A stretch of 64,000 nucleotides of DNA from the NCBI RefSeq assembly GCF_048593235.1, contig NC_133618.1, positions 611,400,889 through 611,464,888 on the forward strand, given 5' to 3'. The notes beneath the pieces were generated by a model. The model saw only the letters and a program-made list of their open reading frames with translations, made no database searches and was not told the DNA's origin. Position numbers and translations under genes: made by a program. Positions 5,230 through 61,400 of this stretch are shown in pieces. Source of the DNA: Sminthopsis crassicaudata. Its lineage: Eukaryota. How positions within the stretch are numbered: position 1 is the first letter of the stretch; every line of letters begins with the position of its first letter.

Positions 5230-6700
5230 GCTCTAGGATATCAAGAACCTAAAGAGCAGAGGAGGTTAATTCCCTAAACCTCCCACAAACTTAATACCCC
5301 CTCCTCCATCATCACCACAATCTGGGCAGCAGAGCCACACAAGTCAATCCACTTGGTTGCCACAGAACTCAGCTCTTTACCCCAAATCTCTTTCTTTCCC
5401 TCCAGTTCTGTAGAGAGCCAGAGGGTAGAGATTTGCTCAGGTTGTGATAGCAGCAAGGTATTGTAATGCTCTGTACTTCATCAGAGCTAGGCCTCAGAGT
5501 TTAAGAGAGAAAGGGTACTGAGGCAGGATATATATGTGGGGGACTATAGAGTACTTCACTCTTTCAGAGAAAGAACTCTGAATTCAGGTAGGGCTAGTTC
5601 TATCCCCTCAGGAAGCATCTGGGAAAGAGATGTAGGCTTGTGAATTGTGAATTGCCCAGCATGAGAGATTGAGATAGTTTTGAGATCAAGCCCCCAGGAA
5701 AGTTGACACTTGAAGGGGATAAAATCAGAAAGTGAGCAACAAAAGGAGAATTTTTTAAAAGACTGAAATTATCAAAGATCTCAGGAAGAAGAAAACTCAA
5801 AGTCCTTGAGCATAAACAGATAAACCAACAGGGAAGCTATCAAGAAAAGAAAGGAAAATAGCTTCCATATTAGGAAAAAAAAGTTCAGGAATCTATGAAT
5901 ACATATTTATAAGACAAAGGAAATTAATCAACATCTGATGAAGCATAGGATCCTGTGGATTCTTAAGAAAGCATGGGACCAAAGCAAGATTTTCCTGAAT
6001 GGAATAAAAGACAAGAATTATAAAAGCAGAATTCATGGCTTGCATAGCAGAAATAATTGAGAGTAGGAAAATTTCAGTCCATTGTTGTAAGTTTCAATAA
6101 AGATAGAAAAAAAGATAATGCATTGGGAGTGCAAATACATAGAAGTGAAGAACAATCTGGAAGGAAGAAAAGCAATAACACTGAAAGAAAGCATGATTTC
6201 CATATAAGCAAAATATATTGATCTTGAAGACAGAATTGCAAAGATAATTTAAGGCTTATGGGTCTCTAAAAATAAAAGGTGTCAAGTCAAAAAAACCTAG
6301 GCACCTTAATACAAGAAATAATATAATAGAATTTTGGAACACAGAAGACAAAGTGCCAGTTGAAAGAATCCATAGATCATTTTCAGAAAAACAAAACAAA
6401 GCCAAAAAACCTATGCTGCAAACTCTAAGACCCATATTGGTTAAATTGAACAATTCCACTGACAAATAACAAATTCTGCAAGCAACTAGGGAAAAGACCT
6501 TCAAACATAATGGAAAAGAAATTCAAATTAACACGCGACTTCCACACTCTCCCAAAACTGTTTGAGGGAATGGAATATGTTCTGAAGAATAAAGGCACTT
6601 GAGATGTAGCTTAAGGTAATGTAAACCCTGCAAATCTGAGCCTAAGCATAAATTTTTAAAAATGGATATTCAGTGAGGAGGTATTTAATTAAAACATTCC
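5230..6700 (+). mobile_element. Old L1/HAL1-type 5' region with degraded ORF1
   Basis: Frame-disrupted L1 ORF1 motifs: IDLEDRIAKDNLRLMGL, ERIHRS, RPILVKLNN, QILQATREKTFKHNGKEIQI, REWNMF, PANLS. No ORF2 seen downstream. Confidence 0.75.
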
Positions 6701-7449
6701 TAGAAAGAAAGCAGGGTATGAAAAAATTATTTGCTTCTCAACCCCCCTGAGCAAGACAAATACAATAAGGATAACAAAAACAGCAACTAAGTACAATAGC
6801 AACACTAGAATAACAACAGAAACTGTAAGAGATTCCTTCCCCTATGTACACAAAGTAACAAGAATGAAAGAAAGAAGTTAAGTGGAAGTGATGGTAGAGA
6901 AATAAGTCTGAAATATCATAGACTAACTCTACACAACACCCAATGACAGGTAAATCAATGTGTTTAGTTTGTTTGTTTTGTGGACTAAATTACAGAAAGG
7001 GAAGGCATATAAACCAAGGGAGTAAGGAAGAAGATAGGGAAGAATTTGTGATATATCCTAGTCAAAGCAAAGGCTAACAATGAAAGGAAAGTAACTCCTG
7101 TAGTCTCTCAGGAAGACGAGAAATTATAAGGAGAATAGGTGGAGTGGGATTGAAAAATGGGAAAGAAAGGAGAAACTTTGTTTCAGTGGTGAGAGATGCT
7201 AGCACTGATGAATGCTCCTATGGAAAAAGGAAGAGTATAAAAAAGAAGTGGGAAGGATTTGCTTTTTAGAAAGACAACTCATTCTAGGAACAGCTGATTT
7301 CAAGAAGAGTGGGAGAGTATGGATTCAGGAAAAAGACAATGAAGAAAATATAGCGAGGAGGAATGACCAAGGAGAGAGCAAAATTCAATAATTAATTGCA
7401 TAATCAGAGACATGTAAACTTCCATAGGGCAGGCAATTCCTCTCTGTTA

Positions 7450-9590: not shown

Positions 9591-10249
9591 ACTAAAGGCT
9601 TTGGAAACTGCTATTTAACTTTGTATGTGATTTCTAATATATTTGTTTAAAAAATCCAGTTTCCATATTTAGCAATAAATAATGAAGTCTGGACATGAGA
9701 AAGTGACCCTTTAATCCCCATTATACAATAATATACCACCAAAGAGAGGAGCAACAAATCAAATTTAACAAGAGCAAAAATTCCAGATTTTGGGTGGTAC
9801 TTGGGGGATTACTTCTTGGTATGAGTTGGACTAGATGGCCACCAAAGCCCTTTCCAATTCTCAAATTCTGTGATTCTAAGAATTAAGCCACTAAACTTTG
9901 AGCTGTTTGAGTGTTTTGTTTTGTTTTGCCTTTCTTTGTATATCCAGTGTTTATCTCAGTGCCTGAGACATAGTAGGTGATTAATAAATGCTTTTTGACT
10001 TGAAACTTTCCATGAGGTTCAGCTGCCTCATCTGTAAAATGAAAGGGATACACTAGATGACCTCTAAGGTCCCTTTTAGCTCTAGCTTTAAATATGTTAT
10101 CTGCCAGTAGGCCCACTCAAGAGGCACCAGAAGGTCTGGCCTTGAGTTTGCCGGAATAATACTTAAGTATTTATTGCTCCACTGTCTAAGGATATAGAAA
10201 AAAAAAGTATCTTGAGCTATCGTTGTCCCATTGGGGAAAAGAATTCTCA

Positions 10250-13290: not shown

Positions 13291-14084
13291 TTTACATTCC
13301 TTTAGGCAGAGCATTATTAGAGATACAAAGACCAAAGTTCTTCCTTCATGGAACTTACAATCTAAAAGCAGTGGGAAAGCACAAAGCACACACAAATAAG
13401 CAAATTCAGGATTATTAGTGGAAAGAGAGAACTTTTACAACTAGTAGGAGGTGGCATGTGAGCAGAATCTTGAAGAAAGTTAAGTATTCCAAGAGATAGG
13501 GCAAAAAAAGAATGTATTCTTGGAATTCAGGATAGTCTGCTCAAAGGCAAGGAGGTAGTAGATAAAACACCTAGTTTGGGGAGCAGCAAATAAGCCAGGT
13601 TGGCTTGGATGTAGATTGTGTGAAAGAAGTGATGTGAAAAAAGTCTAGAAAAATACATGGGAGCCAGAATATGGAAAGCTTTAAATGCCAAGCAGACAAG
13701 TTTGTATTTTATCCTACAGGCAAAAGGGATCCACTAAAGATTCTTGGCAGGAAATGACTTGTGTTTTAAGAATATTAATTTTGCAGTTATATGCAAGATG
13801 GATTGGAGAGGGGAAAGCCTGGAAGCAGGGAGACCAATTAGAAAGCTATAGCAATAGAACAGGCCAAAATGATAAAGACATGAAGTAGTGGCTATAGAAG
13901 TGGAGAGAACAGGATAGTCTATCAGTCAACTGGCATTTTTTAGATTAATGAGACACACAACAAGTTAACAATGAGACACAACAAATAATCTATAGACAAG
14001 ATAAAGTGGGGATGATTTCAAAGAGAAAGCACTAAGCATGAATAGGGCTGAGAAAGGCTTCTTGCATGAGGGGAGACTTAGCTG

Positions 14085-14370
14085 AGACTTCTTTTCCAGT
14101 GGTTGGTGAGGGAGATTGCTCAGGACTTCAAAATAGACTTGAGGTTCCAGAGTGCAGCTATTGGTGCCCTTCAGGAGGCTAGTGAAGCATGTTTGGTTGG
14201 TCTTTTTGAAGATACTAACTTGTGTGCCATCTATGCCAAGAGAGTTACTATCATGCCCTAAGACATCCAGTTGGCTCGCAGAATACAGGGAGAAAGAGTT
14301 TAAGTGAAGGCAGTTTTATGGTGTTTTGTAGTAAATTCTGTAAAATACTTTGGTTTTAATTTGTAAGAAA
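14085..14370 (+). pseudogene. H3F3B: Processed histone H3.3 pseudogene (H3F3B-derived), truncated at both ends
   Basis: 14085-14303 translates [71 protein letters not shown], including the H3.3-specific SAAIG motif. There is no intron and one premature TAA. The following sequence taagtgaaggcagttttatggtgttttgtagtaaattctgtaaaatactttgg matches the H3F3B 3' UTR as I recall it, not H3F3A. Confidence 0.95.
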
Positions 14371-20899: not shown

Positions 20900-21537
20900 C
20901 TGGAAATCACATCAAAAAGCAAAACAGTGACAGATGGTTTATTTTTTATCTCTACTGCAGAGCTTCTGCATAGCCTGAAAGCAATCTCTTTCACCACTAG
21001 ATGGCACTCCCATATTGGTTCCAGGAGATGCTCTCAACATTTTTGGGTGTGGATGAGAAATACTGTTCTATAAATCACCAGCTGGAAAGGGACAGATGGG
21101 GAAGTGAAGGCAGGGAAAACTTAAATATGGGTGATTTGGGATCACCAGGGTATAAGTAGCTGGATTAGTGAAGTCCCAGGCTGCCAAAAGCAAGGAGACA
21201 TTTATATATTGACATTGAGGTACATGAATAATATGGTATATGTGATATATTAAACTTGAATATGTGAAGGTAAAATTTCATTATAACTAAAATACTTTCT
21301 AGCTATTTTCTAAGCATGGTCTTTCCCTATCTATATCCTCACCAGAAACTTGAACTCTATCTTTGAGTCTTCTATTTCCAATAGATGGAATTTTGACCTT
21401 ACCTTTCTGGTCCTAAGTCTCCAATACTCTTCACACCCCAAATTCTGGCCTCCTTGTTTATAAAATACTCCTCTGGGAAATGCAGATTGAGCTTTCCCAT
21501 CAATAGGAATGTACCCAGAACCCATCAGGAGAAGTAA

Positions 21538-21655
21538 TTTAAATAAACCCACTACAAATGCCATTTTGAAAAAAAATGCTAGGTTTCGTATTATTTTAAA
21601 TAAACCCACTACAAATGCCATTTTGAAAAAAAATGCTAGGTTTCGTATTATTTTA
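21538..21655. repeat. Perfect 57-bp tandem duplication
   Basis: tttaaataaacccactacaaatgccattttgaaaaaaaatgctaggtttcgtattat occurs twice with no mismatch. Confidence 0.97.
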
Positions 21656-24271: not shown

Positions 24272-26664
24272 AGAGGGTTTAGAAGTGAAGGCATTGATTG
24301 GTGATGATTTTTTTCAAGAGTGTAGCCACAAAGAGGAGGAAGTTAGTGGGATTCCAGAAGACCTGACATCACATCCTGCTGGAGAGATATCCTTCAAAGA
24401 CATCAGCTGAACCTGGTATCACAATAAGCAAGTCATTAAATTTCCCCGTGCCCCAGACAACTTTCTGTAAGTTTCAGAGAAGATACTGCTCTACAGAGCT
24501 ACTTACACGAGAGAAATCATAGGTCTGGTATAAAAAAAGGATCCAAAAGCTATTTGTCATGGATAAGGATTATTCACTAAATATGGAAGCATTTTCTCAG
24601 AACACATGATAGTTAACTGGATGCTTTTAGCTTTGGGTGTCTTGTGTAAATAATCTCCACTGAGACGTTCTATGGGCTCATTTAACACATCTACTTGGTA
24701 AATCAGTTTTTGCCTAGAGTTCTCTTTTCTACAATTCCCTAGTACCCTAACCTGAAAGAATTCCACTTTTTGGTCCAATTAACATTAATGTCTAAAATCT
24801 CTAGACTTCTAGACTCCAGCAGAGTGATACTCTTCAAAGGAGTAAAGCCTCCCTCCTTCTTGTAATGGGAAGAAAAAAAGTTTACAAAATGAAATTAGAA
24901 CCACTGTGAAAGGTTACTTCCATTGATGTTTATTTTAGTGGAAATAATAACGAACATTGTTCACCATCTAATACTTCACAAATGTCTTCACAATGATATA
25001 ACAAATTAGATAGTGCAAATATCTTTATTCACGTGTAAGGAAAGTCAAACTTAGAATGACTTGCCCACAAACAAGTTACTATCACACAGAAGGTCTGCCA
25101 GATTTGGAAACTATGTCTTCTGGTTCCAAGATCAATCAATGTTCTTTCCCCTATACTATGCAGCCTCTTACCTTTCCAGTCTGGAGATGAGGTTTGTCGT
25201 CCTCCATGCATTTTCAATTACTGTTACTCCACTTTCCATAATAGTAATAATAATAATACCTGACATTTATGTAGTATATATATACACCAAACTATCTGCT
25301 AAGTATTTTACAATAATTATTTCACTTGAACACCACAGCTATGGCAGGTAGGTGCTATTATTATCTCCATTTTACAGATGAGGAAACTGAAACAGGCATA
25401 GATTAAGACCAGGGTCACACAGCTAGGAAGTCTTCCTGACTTTCAGCCTGGCACTTTGTATACTGGCTACATTTTCCACATTTTTTCAGTCCCTGACATC
25501 TCACTTTAAAAGAGTCACTAAGCAACCAAAATATTGGGTGATCATAATGGTGTGGAATCTGGGAACCATGTTTATACAAAAAAGGTTGGAAAACACTTAC
25601 TTGGAGAAGATTAAGGGGAACTATTTTTTCTGCCTTCAGCTATCTAAAGGGCTATATGATGATGGGATTTTGACATACTGTCTTTTCACTAACTAGCTCA
25701 GGTCTTAGACTCATTAACAATTCCTTCAAGCTTCAAACATTAATTCTCCACAACCCCAGGTTCTCTATGAGGAGAAAATCAGTTTTCATTGCCTCACTCC
25801 TCTTGCTTTGTGATGATTGTATAATTAATTTCTGGGGTGTATAAAGAGACTTTTCAAATTAAGCATTACAGGGACCAGATAATGTTTGGGGGGGATGAAA
25901 AGGTTAATAATCATAGTTAGTAGAGGTTTTTAGTTTAACCATGGTACTTCATTAGTGCTCCCCTCACCACCCTTCTCCTGTTAAATCCTTCTTTGTTGAG
26001 ACTCTGGTTTTAGTTTAGTATTAGTCCCATGGCTATGGAAATGATGGCCTGGACTGCCCTTTGAAGTCTTATGAAATTTGCCTTTTCTGCCCTCAGGAGG
26101 GTAAACAGTTAGGTTGGGAGAGACTTCCTGTTTACTTTCCCTTAGTTTGGTCACCTTGGCTCACTTCATCTAAAATTTACTGGCCAAAGCTAGCCTCTAC
26201 TAAATGCTCCAACTGGAGGTGTGAAGGACTTACATTGCTGGTGGGCAGATATTAGCATGCTTGAACTGATACCATCTCCCACCTGAGGAGGCTAGAGAGC
26301 CTTCTTTCAGAAAATCACATTCACATGCAATGGAATGATGTACAAGAGACATAAACAGATACTCACTCTGTAGCTAGTTCTAGTGTGCTATGATGTGGCT
26401 ATGTAGGCATTAAAAAGGCCGTACTTGACCAAAGCCTTACCTTTCTCTTGGTCCTACTCATTCCTTTAAACAGAATTGTTTAATCAATCAAATGCATTTG
26501 TCAAGTGCTTCTTATGTGTCAGGCACTCTGCTAGGCAATGGAGAATCAAAGACAAAAGCAAAAATAGTCCCTGCGTTCAAGAGTTTTTAAGATAGCTGGA
26601 TGTGTAGAGGTACATGATTTTGAGAGGAAGACAGTAATGATATTATGATCTTTATTTTAAGAGA

Positions 26665-27055
26665 AGTTAGGTGGTGCAGTGGATAAAATAGCTTAGAGTG
26701 AGAAAGCTATTCTTTCTGAATTCAAATCCAGCCTCAGACACCTAGTAGCTGTGTGATTCTAGCAAATCACTTAACCTTGTCTGCCTCAGTTTCCTCATTT
26801 GTAAAATAAGCTGGAAAAGGAAAAGGCAAACCATTCCAGTATCTTTGCCAAGAAAACTCCAAATGTAACACTTCCTAGCTGAGTGACCCTGAGCAAGTCA
26901 CTTAACTCCAATTGCCTTGGCCAAAAAAAAAAAAAAAAAAAAAAAAAGAAAAGAAAAAGGAAAAAGAAAGAAAGAAAACTCCAAATGGGTCATGAAGAGT
27001 TGGATATCACTGAAAAAAATGACTGAATACCAACCACCTATGAGGCTGAGAGAGA
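26665..27055 (+). mobile_element. Mar1/MIR-type CORE-SINE (interrupted)
   Basis: ggtggtgcagtggata...gaattcaaatccagcctcagacac...cagtttcctcatttgtaaaat...ccagtatctttgccaagaaaactccaaatg...ggtcatgaagagttgga. Confidence 0.8.
26866..26971 (+). mobile_element. 5'-truncated WSINE1-like SINE with A-tail nested in the Mar1 SINE
   Basis: acacttcctagctgagtgaccctgagcaagtcacttaactccaattgccttggcc plus A-rich tail. 16-bp TSD aagaaaactccaaatg at 26850-26865 and 26972-26987. Confidence 0.8.
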
Positions 27056-28376
27056 TAAGGGAATTTACTTGTAGTCACACAGCTAGGATCAATGGCAAAA
27101 TCTGCACTCAAGCCTTCAGGGCTCTAACAATACTCCATCCATCATGTCAGGGATGATATGGTCCAATCTGCTTATTTAAGATTATTTTGGTAGCTGTGTG
27201 TAGACTAAGTTGAATAGATTGGCAAACAGAGAGACCAGTCGATAAGATATTTTATGGAAATGTGGGTGAGAGGACTTTGTGTATAGAAAAAAGAAAGAAA
27301 AAAGAAAGATTTTGTTGAGGTGGAATAAGCAAGGTTTAAGCACTGATTGGGTATAAAGATGAAGGAAAGGAGAAAAGTCAAGGATCACTTCAAAATTTGA
27401 GTCTGAAATAGAACAGCTGGAGTAAGGAGTTAGAAGGGAAGAATATGACTTTCATTTTGACCATGTTGACTTTGAGATGTTTAAGGAGCATTCAGGGAGG
27501 TTTCTAGCAGGAATCTGGAGAAACAGGAATTATGGAAAGATATTTAGGATGTATATATAGATTTAGTAGGCAAAGGCATAAGGATGAGATGGGAACCAAT
27601 GGGAAAAGATTAAGAACTCAAGCAAAAGAACATATAAGGAAGAGAGTCTAGAACTTTAAGGTGAAATGGGATTATAATGTAGGAAATTAGATTAGATGAT
27701 CTCTCAGCCAATTTCCAGCATAAAATCTTATGATTCTAAGAAAACCACCATTCAACTGGGGGCTGGAAAAAGACTGTTCTGCCTGCAGTTTTGCAAAGGC
27801 AGCTGTAAAAAAAAATCAGTGAAAAGCAATGGCTTTGGCCTTTCTTTTCCAGATTCCATGGTGACCATCTTCCTTCTTGTTCTTGTAATTGCATTGTTTT
27901 TTTCATACTATGATTGCCAAAATTACAGTTGACTTTCCATTAGTTATATTTAATTTGGTGATATTTGAAAAAGAGGGCTAACTTAATTTGCACTGTAACC
28001 CGTTTCATTTATCAAACATCTACTAAACACCTGCTATAAGGTAGCACTGTGATTAGTCCTGAAAATTGTACAAAATTTAGATAAGACATGATTCTTATTC
28101 TCAGAAAGGCATTATATCCTTGCATTTCAACAATTGGTCATACAGAGCAGCTGCTAAAAATGTCATTTAAAAATATATTTGTTTCTCTATCGATTTATAA
28201 ACATAATTTATAACCATAAACATAGTTATGTCTAATGAATATAATAAGTAGAAATATAATTAATTTATCCTAAAGAAGCAATAATCAACAGAATATTTAA
28301 TTACTTCTTTTTCTTTCAATTGTGGTTATCTTGTCATTCTTAACCAAAGGACTAAAATATCTATACAATTAATTAC

Positions 28377-36945: not shown

Positions 36946-38909
36946 AGGAGATATATTTGATGGAGCACAAATCAGGAAGAATTTAAACTCTTGTCTTAAA
37001 TACCTACTATGTGACTCTAAGGAAGTCACATCAGTCTGTTTCCTTATCTTAAAATTTTGATAACAGTACCTATCTTACATGGTTATTTTATCAAATAAGA
37101 TAATGTGCTTTATAAATGCTATTAGAATAATAAAATAATAATAATAATGACATGATTATATCAATTAAATGTAGTTTTATAAATTCATCAAGTTCCTAGT
37201 ATAGGACACTGTTTACCAAATCAAGTTATCACCATGCTGATTTATTCTCTCTGTCAAAAGCTGATACTTTTTGACTTAAAGATCATTTTATCCTTCAAGA
37301 GGAAAAAACTTACATTCTATTCTGACTCACCAACAGAGAGAAACTGATTGTTAGAATGAAGATGATGAAAAACTTGGGAGGAAAAGAACATTCCTTTCTA
37401 GAATTTGTGATAGATGAAAGCCAAGCATAATCCTTCATGCATTTGGGTAGTGGGGATTTTAAAATGTTCAGTAGAAGAACAAGTAGGATACTACAGACTA
37501 AAATTCTTTAAGGGAAGCTGACTCAGGAGAGATAGGAAACATGAAAGAATGAAATTCAGAAGATACAAAAGGAAGCACTTTCAATGAGGAAGAAAAAAAG
37601 AACCTGTCATAGGAAACCAATGTGGATGCACAGAGAACTCAGCAACCAACTTAGATTTTTAAAATGATATGTACAGGAGCCACTAGGTGATAAAGAAGAT
37701 AGAACAATTGGCCCTGAATTCAAATCCTACCTCAAACAACTTACTAGCTGTGTCATATTGGGCAAGTCACTTAACCTTGATTGCCTTTTTAAAAATATGC
37801 ACAATAGACAGACCCAAGTGCAAGAAATATCCCATAAATTAGAAAGCTAAAGACAGAAAGAAAAATCTTTGGGGTTTTTAGAAGGAGGACTAAAGAACAG
37901 CACTGTTGTTTGGAGTGGGTGGGATGATGATAACAGATGATGGAGAGAAGAGATTATTACTCCATTTGCACTCTGCTCCTATCTTTTCCCACAAGAAGAC
38001 TAACATTTGCATGGAAAATGACAGAACAACATTATCTAACACAGCGTTGGTACCCCCAAAATAAAAGATTAGGAAAAAGTGTACCTGGATGCTCCTGGTT
38101 AATTCAAATTACTTGTCCCTATGAACTACATCCCTAGATACTCATAGTAGTTATGACTACTGAGCCACTATATGTGATATTAAAAGGATCATGGAAAACA
38201 GAAGAGAAACTACAGGACTGCTAAAAGGTAAATTCTGTCCAGATGTTCAAAAAAATGAAAAAGGGATGGAATTATCAAACTATCATCAGTGAATCTGAAT
38301 TTGATTCCTGGGAAAATTCTAGAATAGTTCATCATTAAAAATACTGTGTGAACATCTAGAAAAAGAAGTGGCAATTTCAAAGAACCAAAAATTTCATCAA
38401 AAATAATCTATGCATTACTAACTATTGTTTTTGGTTTTTTGCTTTATTACTAAATTGATAGGTCAGAAGCAGATAGGTAGCATGGTAGGATAGAGTTCTG
38501 GGCCTGAAATCAAAAAGTCTCATCTTTCTGAATTCAAATCTAAAATCAGACACTTTCAGAAATTAGGAGTTGATAGTTTCTTTATAGATTATGTTGGTCA
38601 GATATGCTCTAGAATATCATGTTCAGCTCTGTGAGTCACAGTTTATGAAGCATATTGATTAATTAGAGTATCCAAAAGAAAGCAACTAAAGTAGTGAAGG
38701 CCCATGAGTCCATTGTTCCAGAAGGCTCTGTTGTTTAGCCATAAGGATATGTTGGCTGGTTTCAAATATCTGAAGGACTGTCAAATGAAAGAAAGATTAG
38801 ATTTGTGTTTGGCCCAAGACAGAAACAAGGAATAAACAGTTGCAAAGTTTCAAAGAAGCAAAATTATGCTAGATGTCAAGACAAACTATTAACAAATTAA
38901 CTAAAAGGG

Positions 38910-39155
38910 AAAGGGCAGTTAGCACCAGAGTTCACAGAATGTGCAAGACTTGGAGTCAGGACTACTCATCTTCCTGAGTTTAACTTTGACCTCTGACACT
39001 TAATAGCTGTGTGACCCTGGGCAAGTCACTTAATCCTGTTTGCCTCTGTTTCCTCATCTGTAAAATGAGCTGGAGAAGAAATGTCAAGTCACTCCAAGAA
39101 AACCCCAAATAGGGTCACAAAGAGTAGGATAAAACAGAAATAAATGAACAACAAA
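38910..39155 (+). mobile_element. Mar1/MIR-type CORE-SINE
   Basis: ggagtcaggactactcatcttcctgag...gctgtgtgaccctgggcaagtcacttaatcc...tttcctcatctgtaaaatgagctgg. Confidence 0.8.
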
Positions 39156-39186
39156 GACAAATAGTAGAATAAATTGCTTTGTGAAA

Positions 39187-39494
39187 TGTAGAGGGCCACA
39201 GATAGTGGGGGAATTCTGGGTAAGGTATAAGACCTGTCAGCCCAGAGGGAACCTACTGACAATATCTGCTTTGGTTCCCCATTTCCATTTGATGCTCTTA
39301 ACCTTCCTGAGAAGTCAACTAGGGCATGACTACCTGTGTTCTACTTGAAGCAAGGATCTCCTTGACTTCTTAGAAAGGGTGAGAGCCCTTAGGCGAGATG
39401 AGGAGCTAAACCAGACACTGTCAGCAGATTCCTTCTGGGCCAAAGGGTCTTTATATCTTATCCAGAATTCCCCCCCTATCTGTGGCCCTCTACA
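39187..39494. mobile_element. 308-bp fold-back (palindromic) non-autonomous element with TG...CA ends and 6-bp TSD
   Basis: Arms about 39187-39318 and 39362-39494 are reverse complements (32 of the first 33 nt identical, similarity visible over about 130 nt). TSD gtgaaa at 39181-39186 and 39495-39500. The interrupted L3 resumes on both sides. Confidence 0.92.
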
Positions 39495-40531
39495 GTGAAA
39501 GGTCTTCAAGTAGAGGCTGAATAATCAACAAGTATTTTATAGTGGACATTCCTTTTCATAAATAGTTGAATAAGATGGATACTGAGGTCCTTTTTAACTC
39601 TAGTATCAGGTGATTTTTTGATTTATTGTTTTTCATTTTCATATTTTCTTTTGATCCTATTTATGTTGCAATAGTTTTATATTTTAAAATAATACTTAAA
39701 AATTTTTACACTAAAAAAGTTAGAATAAGGGGAGTAAAAGAACTTGAATTTTAACAAGAACAAATCCAACTAATACAACTGAATAAAAATAAGCAAATGC
39801 TGATATTTAATCCACAGAGAGGCAACTAACTGTCAAGGTATACCTAGAGATAACAAGGGCTAAGAATTTGAAATGAATAGGCAGTAATAAACTACTAATA
39901 TAATTTTAGTTATATCACTGAAAAGCTTCATATCACCAGGCAAGAAGATAAGACTCACATTCTACATAACTTGGAACAAATCAAAAACACTGAATTCAAC
40001 TAAGGGTACCTCCCTTGTAAAAAAGACTACATACATCTCAAAGCAAGGAAGAAAAAAACATTTATATTCTTTTCTTTTGTAGTTTATCTCTTTCCTAAGT
40101 TTGAACTGATCAAGTTTCTAATGACATTGTACTAAATACTTGCCTTGGTGGTATTCTTCATTCCACTATAACTGAAATTGAATCTAGCTTTGTTAGAAGC
40201 CAAATAAAGCCATTACAACTAATAGTATCAGAAGAAAGCTGGACAAGTGCTTCAAAGCATTAAACTAGGCAAATATCTGTAAAAGCATTTTTAAGTTGGA
40301 AAATAACCTAATGATATCTTGGATGTGATTGTGCTCATCATGCTCAGACATAAGCTGTGAACTAAGAGAGAAAGGATAAAACTGTTAATCACAAACATAA
40401 AATATTACTTATCACATTGGAAATTTATGTATCCTAAAGCAAAAACTCAAAGGATGGTCCTAAAATGTGCATCAAATTGCTGATTTTACTGACATAATAA
40501 TAATGATATTTTCTTTAAAAATATTTATCAA

Positions 40532-49626: not shown

Positions 49627-49935
49627 TGTAGAGGGCGGAACTTTGGAGTATACTTGAAATAAGGTGTTAACTCAGTGGAATTGATGAGATGACTGTTCTC
49701 TAGTTCACATATATACTTTGTACTTAGTATGGTGATGTAATGATTCTCTAAGTTCACACATAATCAGTATGCTGTAATGATGTAATTACAATAAAGTATA
49801 TAAGGGCTAAGAAGGACTGGAAGATAGACATTCTGTCTTTGACCATCCTTGTGGTGACTGTCCTGCCTCCTGAATTCCTGCACTAAGATCAAGGCTGATC
49901 CCGAGATCCTCCAGAAAGCTAGCCCAGACATTATA
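49627..49935 (+). mobile_element. Solo LTR, ERV2/betaretrovirus-like by TSD length
   Basis: Starts TGTAGAGGGC, contains aataaagtatataagggc (TATA-like), ends cagacattaTA (decayed CA). 6-bp TSD cttctg at 49621-49626 and 49936-49941. Confidence 0.85.
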
Positions 49936-53442: not shown

Positions 53443-53808
53443 TGTAGAGTGCCGGAACTCTGAAAAGGTATACTTGAATCAAGGACAGCATGGTGCTTAT
53501 GGTGATGTAATGGTTGCGCGTGCTCAATGTGCTGGAGTGATATAATCGTACTGAGGTATTTAAGGGAGTCTCAGACACAGAAGGCACTTTCAGCCACAGA
53601 CACAGAGAAAACTTCAGGCTCGAGACTCCAGATTCTGGACTCCATCTTTGACCAACCTCATGAGTCTTCTACCTTTATCACTCTTCCACCAAAATCAAGG
53701 ACTTGGGCTGGTCCCGAGGTCCTCCAGAGAGCTAATCTGGACAGTATGTTTTGTCACCCCAACTTGAGGCTTAGAAAGCACACTATATTTTGGCACCCAG
53801 TTGGGACA
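53443..53808 (+). mobile_element. ERV LTR related to 49627-49935, followed by a PBS-like site
   Basis: Starts TGTAGAGTGCCGGAAC and shares tatggtgatgtaatg and tcaagg...ggctg.tcccgag.tcctccaga.agcta with the other LTR. tggcacccagttgggac at 53791 resembles a tRNA-Lys PBS. Confidence 0.7.
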
Positions 53809-54049
53809 CTGAGATATCCCCTAGAGAGGTGAAATCTGTCCCTGTCCAGCCTATAGACCTTTGCCTTCAGGCACAGTAGGCTTGACCATTTCATCTCCTG
53901 AGAGTACTTCCAAAACAATGTCCATCCATATACTGATATGGGAAACTGGGGAATGTGTAGATAATATCCCAGTCACTAATAAAGAACTGACAAAAGAATT
54001 ACACATAAAATATTTCACAGATGGGGAAGAACCTTGGTGTTATCCAAAA

Positions 54050-58488: not shown

Positions 58489-61400
58489 ATTCCCTTCTCT
58501 TGTTTTGTGAGGACCGCATCCTTACAGGGAACAGGACACATGTCAACTTAAAACTCAATCCCTTCTTTCACTGAGTTCCCAGTCTAGTAGGGGGATGTGC
58601 CATCCAACAAATAATTATAATACACAACACATTCATGAAAAAAGGCATATACAAGGTAAATGGTAGAATGACAAGCAGGAATAAAGGAATGAGGGTAAAC
58701 TATGAAACAGAACAAGTATTTTTAAATTAAAAATGCATTAGCCAAGAGTTTGTGAATCTGAATTGGCTAAACATAAAATTATATGTGATGATACTCCTTC
58801 ACCATCTGTAAGTTTGATTATAAACCAAAACAAGGTAAATCCCTCCCTATGTACTTTTGATTTCATCCTGCTTCTAGATATTTACTAGCTGTGCTATCCT
58901 AGGCAAGTCAATTAGCTCTTCTGGTCTTTCTTTTTCTTATCAGTAGAATGAATGGAGTAAACTCAATGGCCGGTAAAATTCCTTTAAGCCTTAGAGATAG
59001 GATCCAATGGACCTAATGTAATTCAAATTGGTGGCATCTGCTAAGTAGTATTTTGGGGCAGGAAGTTTCCTATGTTCTTTGCCTTCCCTAACCTTTATGT
59101 CTTTATTATTATATTTTCCCCTTTCTCATCTCTGCAAGCTGAGCCCCAGGACTCAATAAAAAAAAAGCTTATAATGGTAAAAAAAGAGCAACTAATTTGA
59201 ATAAATGGCATTCTATTAAGAAAAACTGATAGTCCCTTATAATATTATGACTGCCATAATCATGCTATTTTATATAAATTAAGAGTTCAATAAATGCTAT
59301 TGATTAAAATGACTGAAATCAACATTTTACTACCTTGCATTCTATCATTTGTTGTAGGCAAGGCAGATTGGTATAGTAAAAAGAATGCTGGCTTTGGAAT
59401 CAAAGGATCCAGTTACATTCAAGTTTTGATTCCAATTCTTATTGCTTATATGACATTAGTTAAGAAGTCACTTAACTTCCGTTGGGCTCAGTTTCCTCAT
59501 CTGCATCATGCTAAGGTTGGACTAGGTGTACCTTAAGGTTCCTTATAGCTCTAAATCTAAGATTCTTTGTTTACGACTGTTTACAAGAATGGTCAATTCT
59601 CTTCCAAATCTTGGACAAAATGAATTCCTCTTAGGTCTTAATTTTCTCATTTGTGAACTTGATTGATCTAGATACTTTTTAAGGTCCCATTTAATCCTAA
59701 ATACCTGAATGCTAGTACTGCTAAACATTATTTGTGGCTTTCTTTACTTGAAAATAAACTGTATTAAAAAGGGAAGGGCAAAGTTCTTCACATTTACAAA
59801 ACAGCACTTTTTAAAGACTGGCAGAAATCCCTATAAATAGAGTGGTTTGTTTCTGTGTCCTGGAAGAACCTAGGAGAATAGAGTGATTGTGAAGGGGCTA
59901 AATACAGAAAAGTAAATGAGGTACTTTTATGGATATGCTTATTTTTTCCTGTCTCCATGAAGACATTCTGTGACTAAATTAGATTTCCAGTGTCTTGCCC
60001 CTCCTCAGAAACAGATTCCCCAGGGATTAGGAGGAGAGGAAAATGACTATTAGCTTGTGTGGTTTTGTATATGTGTATGTTTTAAAGAAAAACACATAAC
60101 TTCTTATATAAGAAATAAACAAATAATGAACAAGTCCCAGTTTAGAAAACTTCAAAATTCAAATTAGGTACCAGAACACTATTTAGTTTAATACTTCAAA
60201 AGGTTCTGGCTCAATCACTGTGAATATTACCTCCATCAACACCTATCTCAACAATTCCAAGTTTATTAGAGAATATTTATGAATTGTCGTGGTCAAACAC
60301 TCCATCAATTGTTGGTTAACTTGTAAACTTCTCCAAATTTGTTAAGTAATTTAAAAAATATAGTTCTCAAATACACATAGTCCCTCACTGCACCTGTAGA
60401 GTCAAAGCCTTTCCAACTTAGTAAAATATACCAGAGTTTAAACCATAGTCTTTGGGTGACCCCACTATCCTGATGAGACAATGATTTGGAAATTTAGTAG
60501 AGGACCAGGACCTAAAGGTTTTTAAAAATCTTTATTTTTCTCTATTTTAAACCATAAGGAGCCTCCTCATTTCTAAGTCAAATTACAACTTCTGAAACAC
60601 TATGAAATCCATAGAAGAGGGATGGGAGAAAAGGATGTAAGTATATTTTACTTTACTAAATAGATACCTTCTTTAAGAAAGTGACTGTATTATATCCCAA
60701 ATGTCTTGGTGCAATTTTAAGTTTTAATATTTCAAAAGTATGAAAACTTATAAAAACTTGTAAATTAACAAAAAGCTTACAAAAATATCATAGATATTAT
60801 TTAAATTTATTTTACATTTAGTTTTGCAGATTCTAAATATCAAATTTTTCATTTTAACAAGATGGGACAACCTGCCTTGCATCAAACACTTTCTTAGACC
60901 ATCAGATCAGTAGAAGATACTCTTATTCAGACACCTCAGTCACTTGATCTATCAATCAGTTTGAATATTAGATTATTCTTTGTGGGCTCATGTCAAAACT
61001 TTCATACATGTATCAAATTCACATTCTTTGGATGTTCTTAAAGTTACAATTTTGAATGTAATTCTCTCAGTCAATGAGTAGCAGCTGATAGAAAATTTGA
61101 AAATCAATTTAAAAGATGTAAAGCAAAAGGCATTGGTTATATTGAATTTTAATATAAAATATTATTTCTAAATTTTAAATAACCTTTAAAATAATCTCAT
61201 ATATTTGTAGTATTTGATGAAAATATTAAAGTTTAAAACTGTATTAACAACAATTGTTTATATGTACATTGACAAATTGATAAATGGAAATATTCTTTTG
61301 AAAAATGTCTAGCTCCAATGGGGTAAACTCAATGGCCTATAAAATTCCTTTAAGTCTTAGAAATAGGATCCAATAGGACTGAGGAATAATATCACATCTA

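Follow-up and report, generated by a model that had tools for sequence, protein, structure and literature searches.

Within the 64,000-nucleotide stretch of DNA analysed here (hereafter, the window), a 308-bp fold-back element at positions 39187-39494 appears, as judged from its sequence, to consist of two diverged ERV-related pieces that are joined head-to-head and were inserted by a betaretrovirus-type integrase. The best reading, to which we assign a probability of roughly 0.4, is that a non-autonomous class II (betaretrovirus-like) ERV of an Australian marsupial, with an LTR that was itself folded back, left the element behind as a solo-LTR-like remnant. Like a class II ERV solo LTR, the element starts with TG, ends with CA and is flanked by a target-site duplication (TSD), GTGAAA, of exactly 6 bp with no further extension. 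Two random 6-mers of the window match by chance with a probability of 5e-4, and among the 25 TG...CA inverted pairs of 10 bp that lie 100-3000 bp apart in the 64-kb window, the 6-bp TSD is present only at the fold-back element. A second such 10-nt pair, at 25553-27858, has a 5-bp flank match without a longer repeat; it is probably due to chance and was set aside. MITEs of the hAT type carry an 8-bp TSD and Tc1/mariner elements duplicate TA, unlike the 6 bp seen here. A 6-bp TSD is given for the betaretrovirus MMTV (PMC3790719), and 4-nt TSDs for a class I LTR family of the devil (PMC4408412). A sequence-only reading of this DNA had already described a 308-bp inverted-repeat insertion with TG...CA termini and an exact 6-bp TSD, which we confirm with the qualification that the arms are imperfect, and its proposal of a retroviral-type integrase footprint is supported by the termini together with the betaretroviral TSD length. 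The features are collected in Table 1.

Table 1. Coordinates of the fold-back element, its host repeat, the two local LTRs and the blocks shared with the MEBrv3 record (window positions unless stated otherwise).
Feature	Position	Strand	Basis
Host old repeat, left part	38560..38918	+	alignment to two other window copies
Left TSD GTGAAA	39181..39186	+	sequence
Left U3-type end: attachment motif TGTAGAGGGC and LTR A/B 5'-end-related sequence with a 12-13 nt insertion	39187..39226	+	40-mer ranking
Left arm body, apparently homologous to the MEBrv3 pre-polypurine-tract region; TATA-like word at its start; stops where the ERV purine tract begins	39227..39343	+	by-eye comparison with supplement record
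Junction filler, 14 nt, two nested mini-hairpins (39344-39354, 39351-39364)	39344..39357	+	sequence
Right arm body: inverted, diverged (~71%) copy of the left arm's ERV-related region, ~20 nt shorter at the centre; TATAAA 39450-39455	39358..39454	-	alignment and by-eye blocks
Right U3-type end, >90% complementary to the left end	39455..39494	-	alignment
Right TSD GTGAAA	39495..39500	+	sequence
Host old repeat, right part, collinear with the left	39501..39615	+	alignment to two other window copies
Solo LTR A (comparison), 309 bp, 6-bp TSD CTTCTG, ends TA not CA	49627..49935	+	
LTR B (comparison), ~305 bp, related to LTR A (0/1000 shuffles), PBS-like sequence after it	53443..53747	+	
Element nt 41-60 in MEBrv3	MEBrv3 record 6526-6545		16/20 by eye
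Element nt 91-113 in MEBrv3	MEBrv3 record 6560-6582		20/23 by eye
Element nt 116-131 in MEBrv3	MEBrv3 record 6589-6604		15/16 by eye
Element nt 137-157 in MEBrv3	MEBrv3 record 6771-6791		17/21 by eye

The fold-back element did interrupt an older repeat, presumably L3/CR1-like, because its two flanks align to successive stretches of two further copies of that repeat in the window: none of 300 shuffles did as well against either copy for the left flank, and 0/300 and 1/300 did for the right flank. The interruption was previously regarded as clean; the two flanks do belong to one old repeat, but a SINE at 38936-39150 breaks the same repeat ~36 bp upstream of the element, and the stub between the two insertions is not alignable to it (171/300 and 157/300 shuffles as good). 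The window is AT-rich, and by-eye comparison of its SINE copies shows a likeness to dasyurid SINEs given in the PMC4408412 supplement, which makes an Australian marsupial, most likely a dasyurid, the probable host. A scan of 150 of the 478 stop-free frames (at least 45 aa) against Pfam revealed no host gene close to the element and thereby neither confirms nor refutes the candidate gene intron of the sequence-only reading; the only one of the 150 to pass the curated cut-off was a histone fragment at 14082-14258 (+ strand; PF00125, E 1.7e-19), probably a processed pseudogene. The window also holds two tandem 57-nt copies that are 98% identical, at 21535-21648 within a 112-aa stop-free frame, and a 58-nt direct repeat (58951-59008 and 61317-61374; 91% identical, 2366 bp apart). 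The possibility that the element is coding was rejected, as its 53-54 aa stop-free frames are shifted between the arms by a 1-nt indel and have no Pfam match.

The two arms of the element are unevenly preserved. The outer arms (39187-39230 and 39451-39494) are 93% complementary over 44 nt, and the inner arms (39229-39318 and 39362-39451) are 72% complementary over 90 nt, with 43 nt between them. The difference in identity, 44/48 columns in the outer part versus 60/85 in the inner part, gave a permutation p of 0.018 for a split point chosen as the best, and indicates that the arms already differed at insertion and have a history of several steps. TATA-like words lie ~40 nt inward from each end, and the well-kept outer 44-48 bp end at such a TATA-like box. 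Mismatches in 4 of 43 outer-arm columns (9%, 95% interval 3-22%) and a depletion of CpG (1 seen versus 18 expected) show that the copy is not very recent. The predicted RNA fold is highly stable (-184.4 kcal/mol, z -16.6; 0/100 shuffles equally stable), as is the DNA fold (-81, z -11.8), and the longest unbroken helix in the hairpin is 24 bp. G-U-compatible mismatches show no strand bias (11 on the plus and 9 on the minus strand, of 28) and so give no hint that the RNA structure has been under selection. The earlier suggestion of a long dsRNA, which presupposes transcription, stands as far as the predicted fold and its 24-bp helix are concerned.

This architecture would also be produced by a one-off aberrant cDNA, dead on arrival and single-copy, in which plus-strand DNA started at the U3 end of a short-LTR ERV changed template to a co-packaged relative, whose plus strand it copied backwards; the resulting linear DNA, with a U3 end on either side, was then inserted by integrase in the normal way. 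The interior of the arms is ~71% alike, as two subfamilies would be, and the element is present once in the 64-kb window in a DNA-level search. The nested mini-hairpins of the junction filler give this account modest support, given that 6-bp stems occur in the window at 0.003 per base. Inversions are found in 1.9% of sequenced HTLV-1c proviruses, although the HTLV-1c paper favours post-integration causes for them. This origin would, however, require a short-LTR family that resembles one arm, and none was seen; reports of U3-U3 integrants were not found in the literature searched, and a random window should rarely meet a unique event, being likelier to include a member of a high-copy family. 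On balance, we regard a single reverse-transcription accident as somewhat unlikely.

Retroviral LTRs are polar, with U3 and U5 ends that differ: priming at the PPT fixes the former, and the tRNA primer the latter. The fold-back element does not have this U3-R-U5 polarity with the distinct ends of a class II solo LTR. Its first 10 nt are identical to those of solo LTR A, and 10 of its first 11 nt match LTR B, much as had been noted from the sequence alone, and with a gap of 12-13 nt the likeness to both LTRs extends to about nt 33-40 of the element. When the left arm was compared with all 8218 TG-starting 40-mers, LTR B and LTR A were the top two non-self matches; for the right arm, LTR B ranked second and LTR A lower (rank 11 counting self-overlaps). 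The right end of the element has the look of a U3 start and differs from the U5 ends of LTRs A and B. Because the U5 ends of both LTRs diverge from the fold-back termini after the first few bases, both termini of the element are U3-type, in support of the two U3-type ends proposed earlier. LTR starts of the MEBrv3 type in the supplement records share 7/10 and 8/10 positions with the 10-nt start of the element, so that this motif is the mark of a clan of class II integrases and not of a single LTR. After LTR B, at 53748-53810, there are two PBS-like stretches ~40 nt apart, presumably of the lysine type, and no matching 3' LTR or clean TSD is found downstream in the window.

The likeness to the local LTRs comprises the U3 attachment end, the ~33-40 nt of related 5' sequence, a size near 308 bp and, for LTR A, the 6-bp TSD. 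Unlike the fold-back element, both LTRs have a distinct U5 end and lack a long inverted repeat, and their bodies do not align with the arms. We examined whether the arms are halves of LTR A or B and rejected this, since 70-421 of 1000 shuffles scored as well as the arm bodies. The tie to the local LTRs that had been drawn on the basis of the 10-nt start therefore holds for the outer 33-40 nt but not for the arm bodies, whose matches, counted by eye in the supplement records, lie instead in class II ERV sequence just ahead of the PPT (see below).

The two-sided U3 structure could alternatively have arisen after integration, from an ordinary solo LTR with a 6-bp TSD. In this account, gene conversion or template switching at replication would later have exchanged the right half of that LTR for the inverted sequence of a related one, and quasi-palindrome correction would have evened the outer arms. 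The mini-hairpins at the junction would fit such an event, and the few terminal bases that are all the U3 and U5 ends have in common offer a possible crossover point. The replacement must nonetheless have stopped exactly at the terminal CA and spared the TSD, and we consider this course of events highly improbable.

The arm bodies were compared by eye with the GenBank supplement records of Harding et al. (PMC11334065), on selected blocks and with the gaps between blocks uncounted. In the MEBrv3 record, four collinear blocks match the element at 68/80 nt by eye (Table 1). Position 6791 of this record is the last base ahead of the purine tract, and a 469-bp 3' LTR follows at 6812-7280; the left arm thereby halts at 39343, where the MEBrv3 polypurine tract begins. 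The MEBrv2 record contains an inverted copy of the MEBrv3 pre-PPT region, which matches the minus strand of the element in four ordered blocks (20/21, 16/16, 17/22 and 16/18; 69/77 by eye). Across all eight supplement records (72,319 bp), a 16/16 match is expected by chance 0.010 times and a 20/21 match 0.0006 times. The right arm matches the pre-PPT region of MEBrv3/MEBrv2 in by-eye blocks of 16/18 and 14/16. MEBrv3 carries ~4 tandem units in this region in its record, and each fold-back arm corresponds to one of them. From about position 9700, the MEBrv2 record holds the inverted MEBrv3-like 3' region with a PPT and an LTR start, which suggests that a second provirus is nested within this representative. 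A search of the same GenBank file for words of the element is affected by the splitting of its sequence every 10 nt, and misses there are no proof of absence.

MEBrv3 is described as the dominant dasyurid ERV, env-less and retrotransposing, and gag-pro-pol is still intact in copies from three species (Harding et al. 2024, PMC11334065). Because such intact copies exist in three dasyurid species, a helper existed. MEBrv3 resembles the fold-back element in the non-coding stretch upstream of the PPT (record ~6526-6791), which matches the arm bodies, and in its LTR start (7/10). It differs in its ~4 tandem units and in a 469-bp direct-repeat LTR of other sequence, whereas the fold-back element has one inverted unit per arm and is without LTR body, PBS, PPT or genes. 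In SERV-K/MER11, a captured foreign LTR just upstream of the PPT acts as an RNA export element (PMC11379458), and by its position the MEBrv3 pre-PPT region would be a candidate for the same role. SERV-K/MER11, as described there, is a precedent for exchange between LTR and pre-PPT sequence, but its captured LTR is direct and lies within the provirus, while the fold-back element is inverted and free-standing. Because of this precedent, the arms may derive either from the 3' region of an ERV or, together with the MEBrv3 region, from a short LTR family that was not seen.

The fold-back LTR is supported by the size of the element, 308 bp against 309 and ~305 bp for LTRs A and B, and by its TSD length, which is that of both MMTV (PMC3790719) and the local solo LTR A. 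The ERV-related arm bodies, the existence of a helper, the uneven divergence of the arms and the SERV-K/MER11 precedent also speak for it, as does the expectation that an insertion in a random window belongs to a high-copy family. Counting against it, the element occurs once, no longer parent with two direct 308-bp repeats is present in the 64-kb window, and AATAAA and ATTAAA are absent from both strands of the element; furthermore, the ERV match consists of blocks selected by eye from the supplement records. A palindromic LTR or a U3-U3 element is undescribed in the literature searched, a scope outside which subscription papers, Repbase Reports and bioRxiv supplements fall.

Integrase normally does not cut a provirus out of the genome. 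A free 308-bp copy without PBS, PPT or ORF cannot remake its ends by reverse transcription; hence, a multi-copy element must have had a longer parent. Because the ends are not remade via RNA and a provirus is not normally excised, the simplest route in the multi-copy case runs through a longer non-autonomous element that had the 308-bp unit as its LTR, the present copy being a solo remnant. In such a course, the two pieces would first have been fused head-to-head while being reverse transcribed, by template switching or by snap-back synthesis, and the 308-bp unit would have become the LTR of a longer element with its own PBS and PPT. This parent may have relied on an MEBrv3-like helper to supply Gag, RT and integrase in trans, the integrase would have taken a U3-type end at both termini and produced the 6-bp TSD, and recombination between the two LTRs could then have left a single inert 308-bp unit. 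More speculatively, with the well-kept outer stretch stopping at the TATA-like box, the 3' U3 might pair with the 5' U5 in the RNA and circularise the genome, which might explain the likeness of the outer arms; in Ty1, 5'-3' pairing reportedly aids strand transfer. If the element is multi-copy, the odds that a repeat library already lists it, as an LTR or as unknown, are, by our own estimate, a little short of even.

The near-perfect 44-bp terminal repeat with its decayed interior speaks against the fold-back LTR in one further respect, as it is also the classic pattern of a MITE, and the element is short and non-coding with TIRs and a TSD. TRIMs and other minimal non-autonomous LTR retroelements have two direct terminal repeats with a PBS and a PPT between them. 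The fold-back element differs in that its repeats are inverted, and neither a PBS nor a PPT was found inside or beside it (longest purine runs 8 and 10 nt). The MITE-like alternative is a family in which an ERV-derived palindrome was excised and reinserted as DNA by an ERV integrase or a Ginger-like transposase binding the outer 44 bp, where >90% is kept over 44-48 bp. Ginger1 and Ginger2/Tdd share with the element TGTNR termini, TIRs within 40-270 bp and integrase-type chemistry, and Bao et al. proposed that a pair of LTRs in opposite orientation could have given rise to the TIRs of Ginger1 (Bao et al. 2010, PMC2836005). These elements nevertheless have a TSD of 4 bp (5 bp in Tdd) instead of 6, CCGG/CCGT or RTATAY targets and a transposase ORF, whereas the fold-back element has the 6-bp TSD GTGAAA, no ORF and ERV-related arms. 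For mammals, the part of that paper used here mentions only domesticated Gin-1 genes, and it gives the excision mechanism of Ginger as unknown (PMC2836005). No transposase was found among the 150 of 478 frames scanned, and nothing demonstrates DNA cut-and-paste. The MITE-like mobilisation favoured by the sequence-only reading is thus unsupported so far, with one copy in the window, and we judge it decidedly unlikely.

Searches beyond the window were made with several kinds of query. In Rfam, the element had no match at the gathering score and only sub-threshold hairpin matches. Of two copy searches with a translated proxy, one gave no candidates and the other returned 12, none with E<=1, which says nothing on copy number, and the translated proxy had 2 weak matches among 1.84 billion representatives, both to unrelated tandem-repeat proteins and equally uninformative on copy number. 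A 17-nt end word gave 7 matches in bacterial and archaeal genomes, all of 17-21 nt only and attributable to chance. Words of the element are absent from ~4 million characters of the supplement of PMC13641905, and in four of the five supplement files of PMC4408412 they have only short unrelated matches; in the main texts of articles, they led to listings on unrelated topics only.

The weight of the finding depends on copy number. As a single-copy element it would be the molecular fossil of an error in reverse transcription, of little weight. A replicating element with a fold-back LTR or two U3 ends would show that a class II integrase accepts symmetric donors in a germ line, and would then be a natural test of how TIR elements can arise from LTR elements, a route proposed in PMC2836005. 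A stronger claim, that a multi-copy mammalian family has recast retroviral parts as a TIR element with two U3 ends that is moved as DNA by an ERV-type integrase, is in our estimation quite improbable; if true, it would supply an actual case of an LTR retroelement turning into a TIR transposon, a passage put forward without an example to account for how Ginger1 originated (PMC2836005). The arms themselves point to a conserved MEBrv3 pre-PPT unit, by position a candidate RNA export element. If transcribed, the fold-back element would form a long hairpin with a predicted unbroken helix of 24 bp, and if it belongs to a dispersed family, ready-made RNA hairpins of ~130 bp would have been seeded across dasyurid-like genomes.
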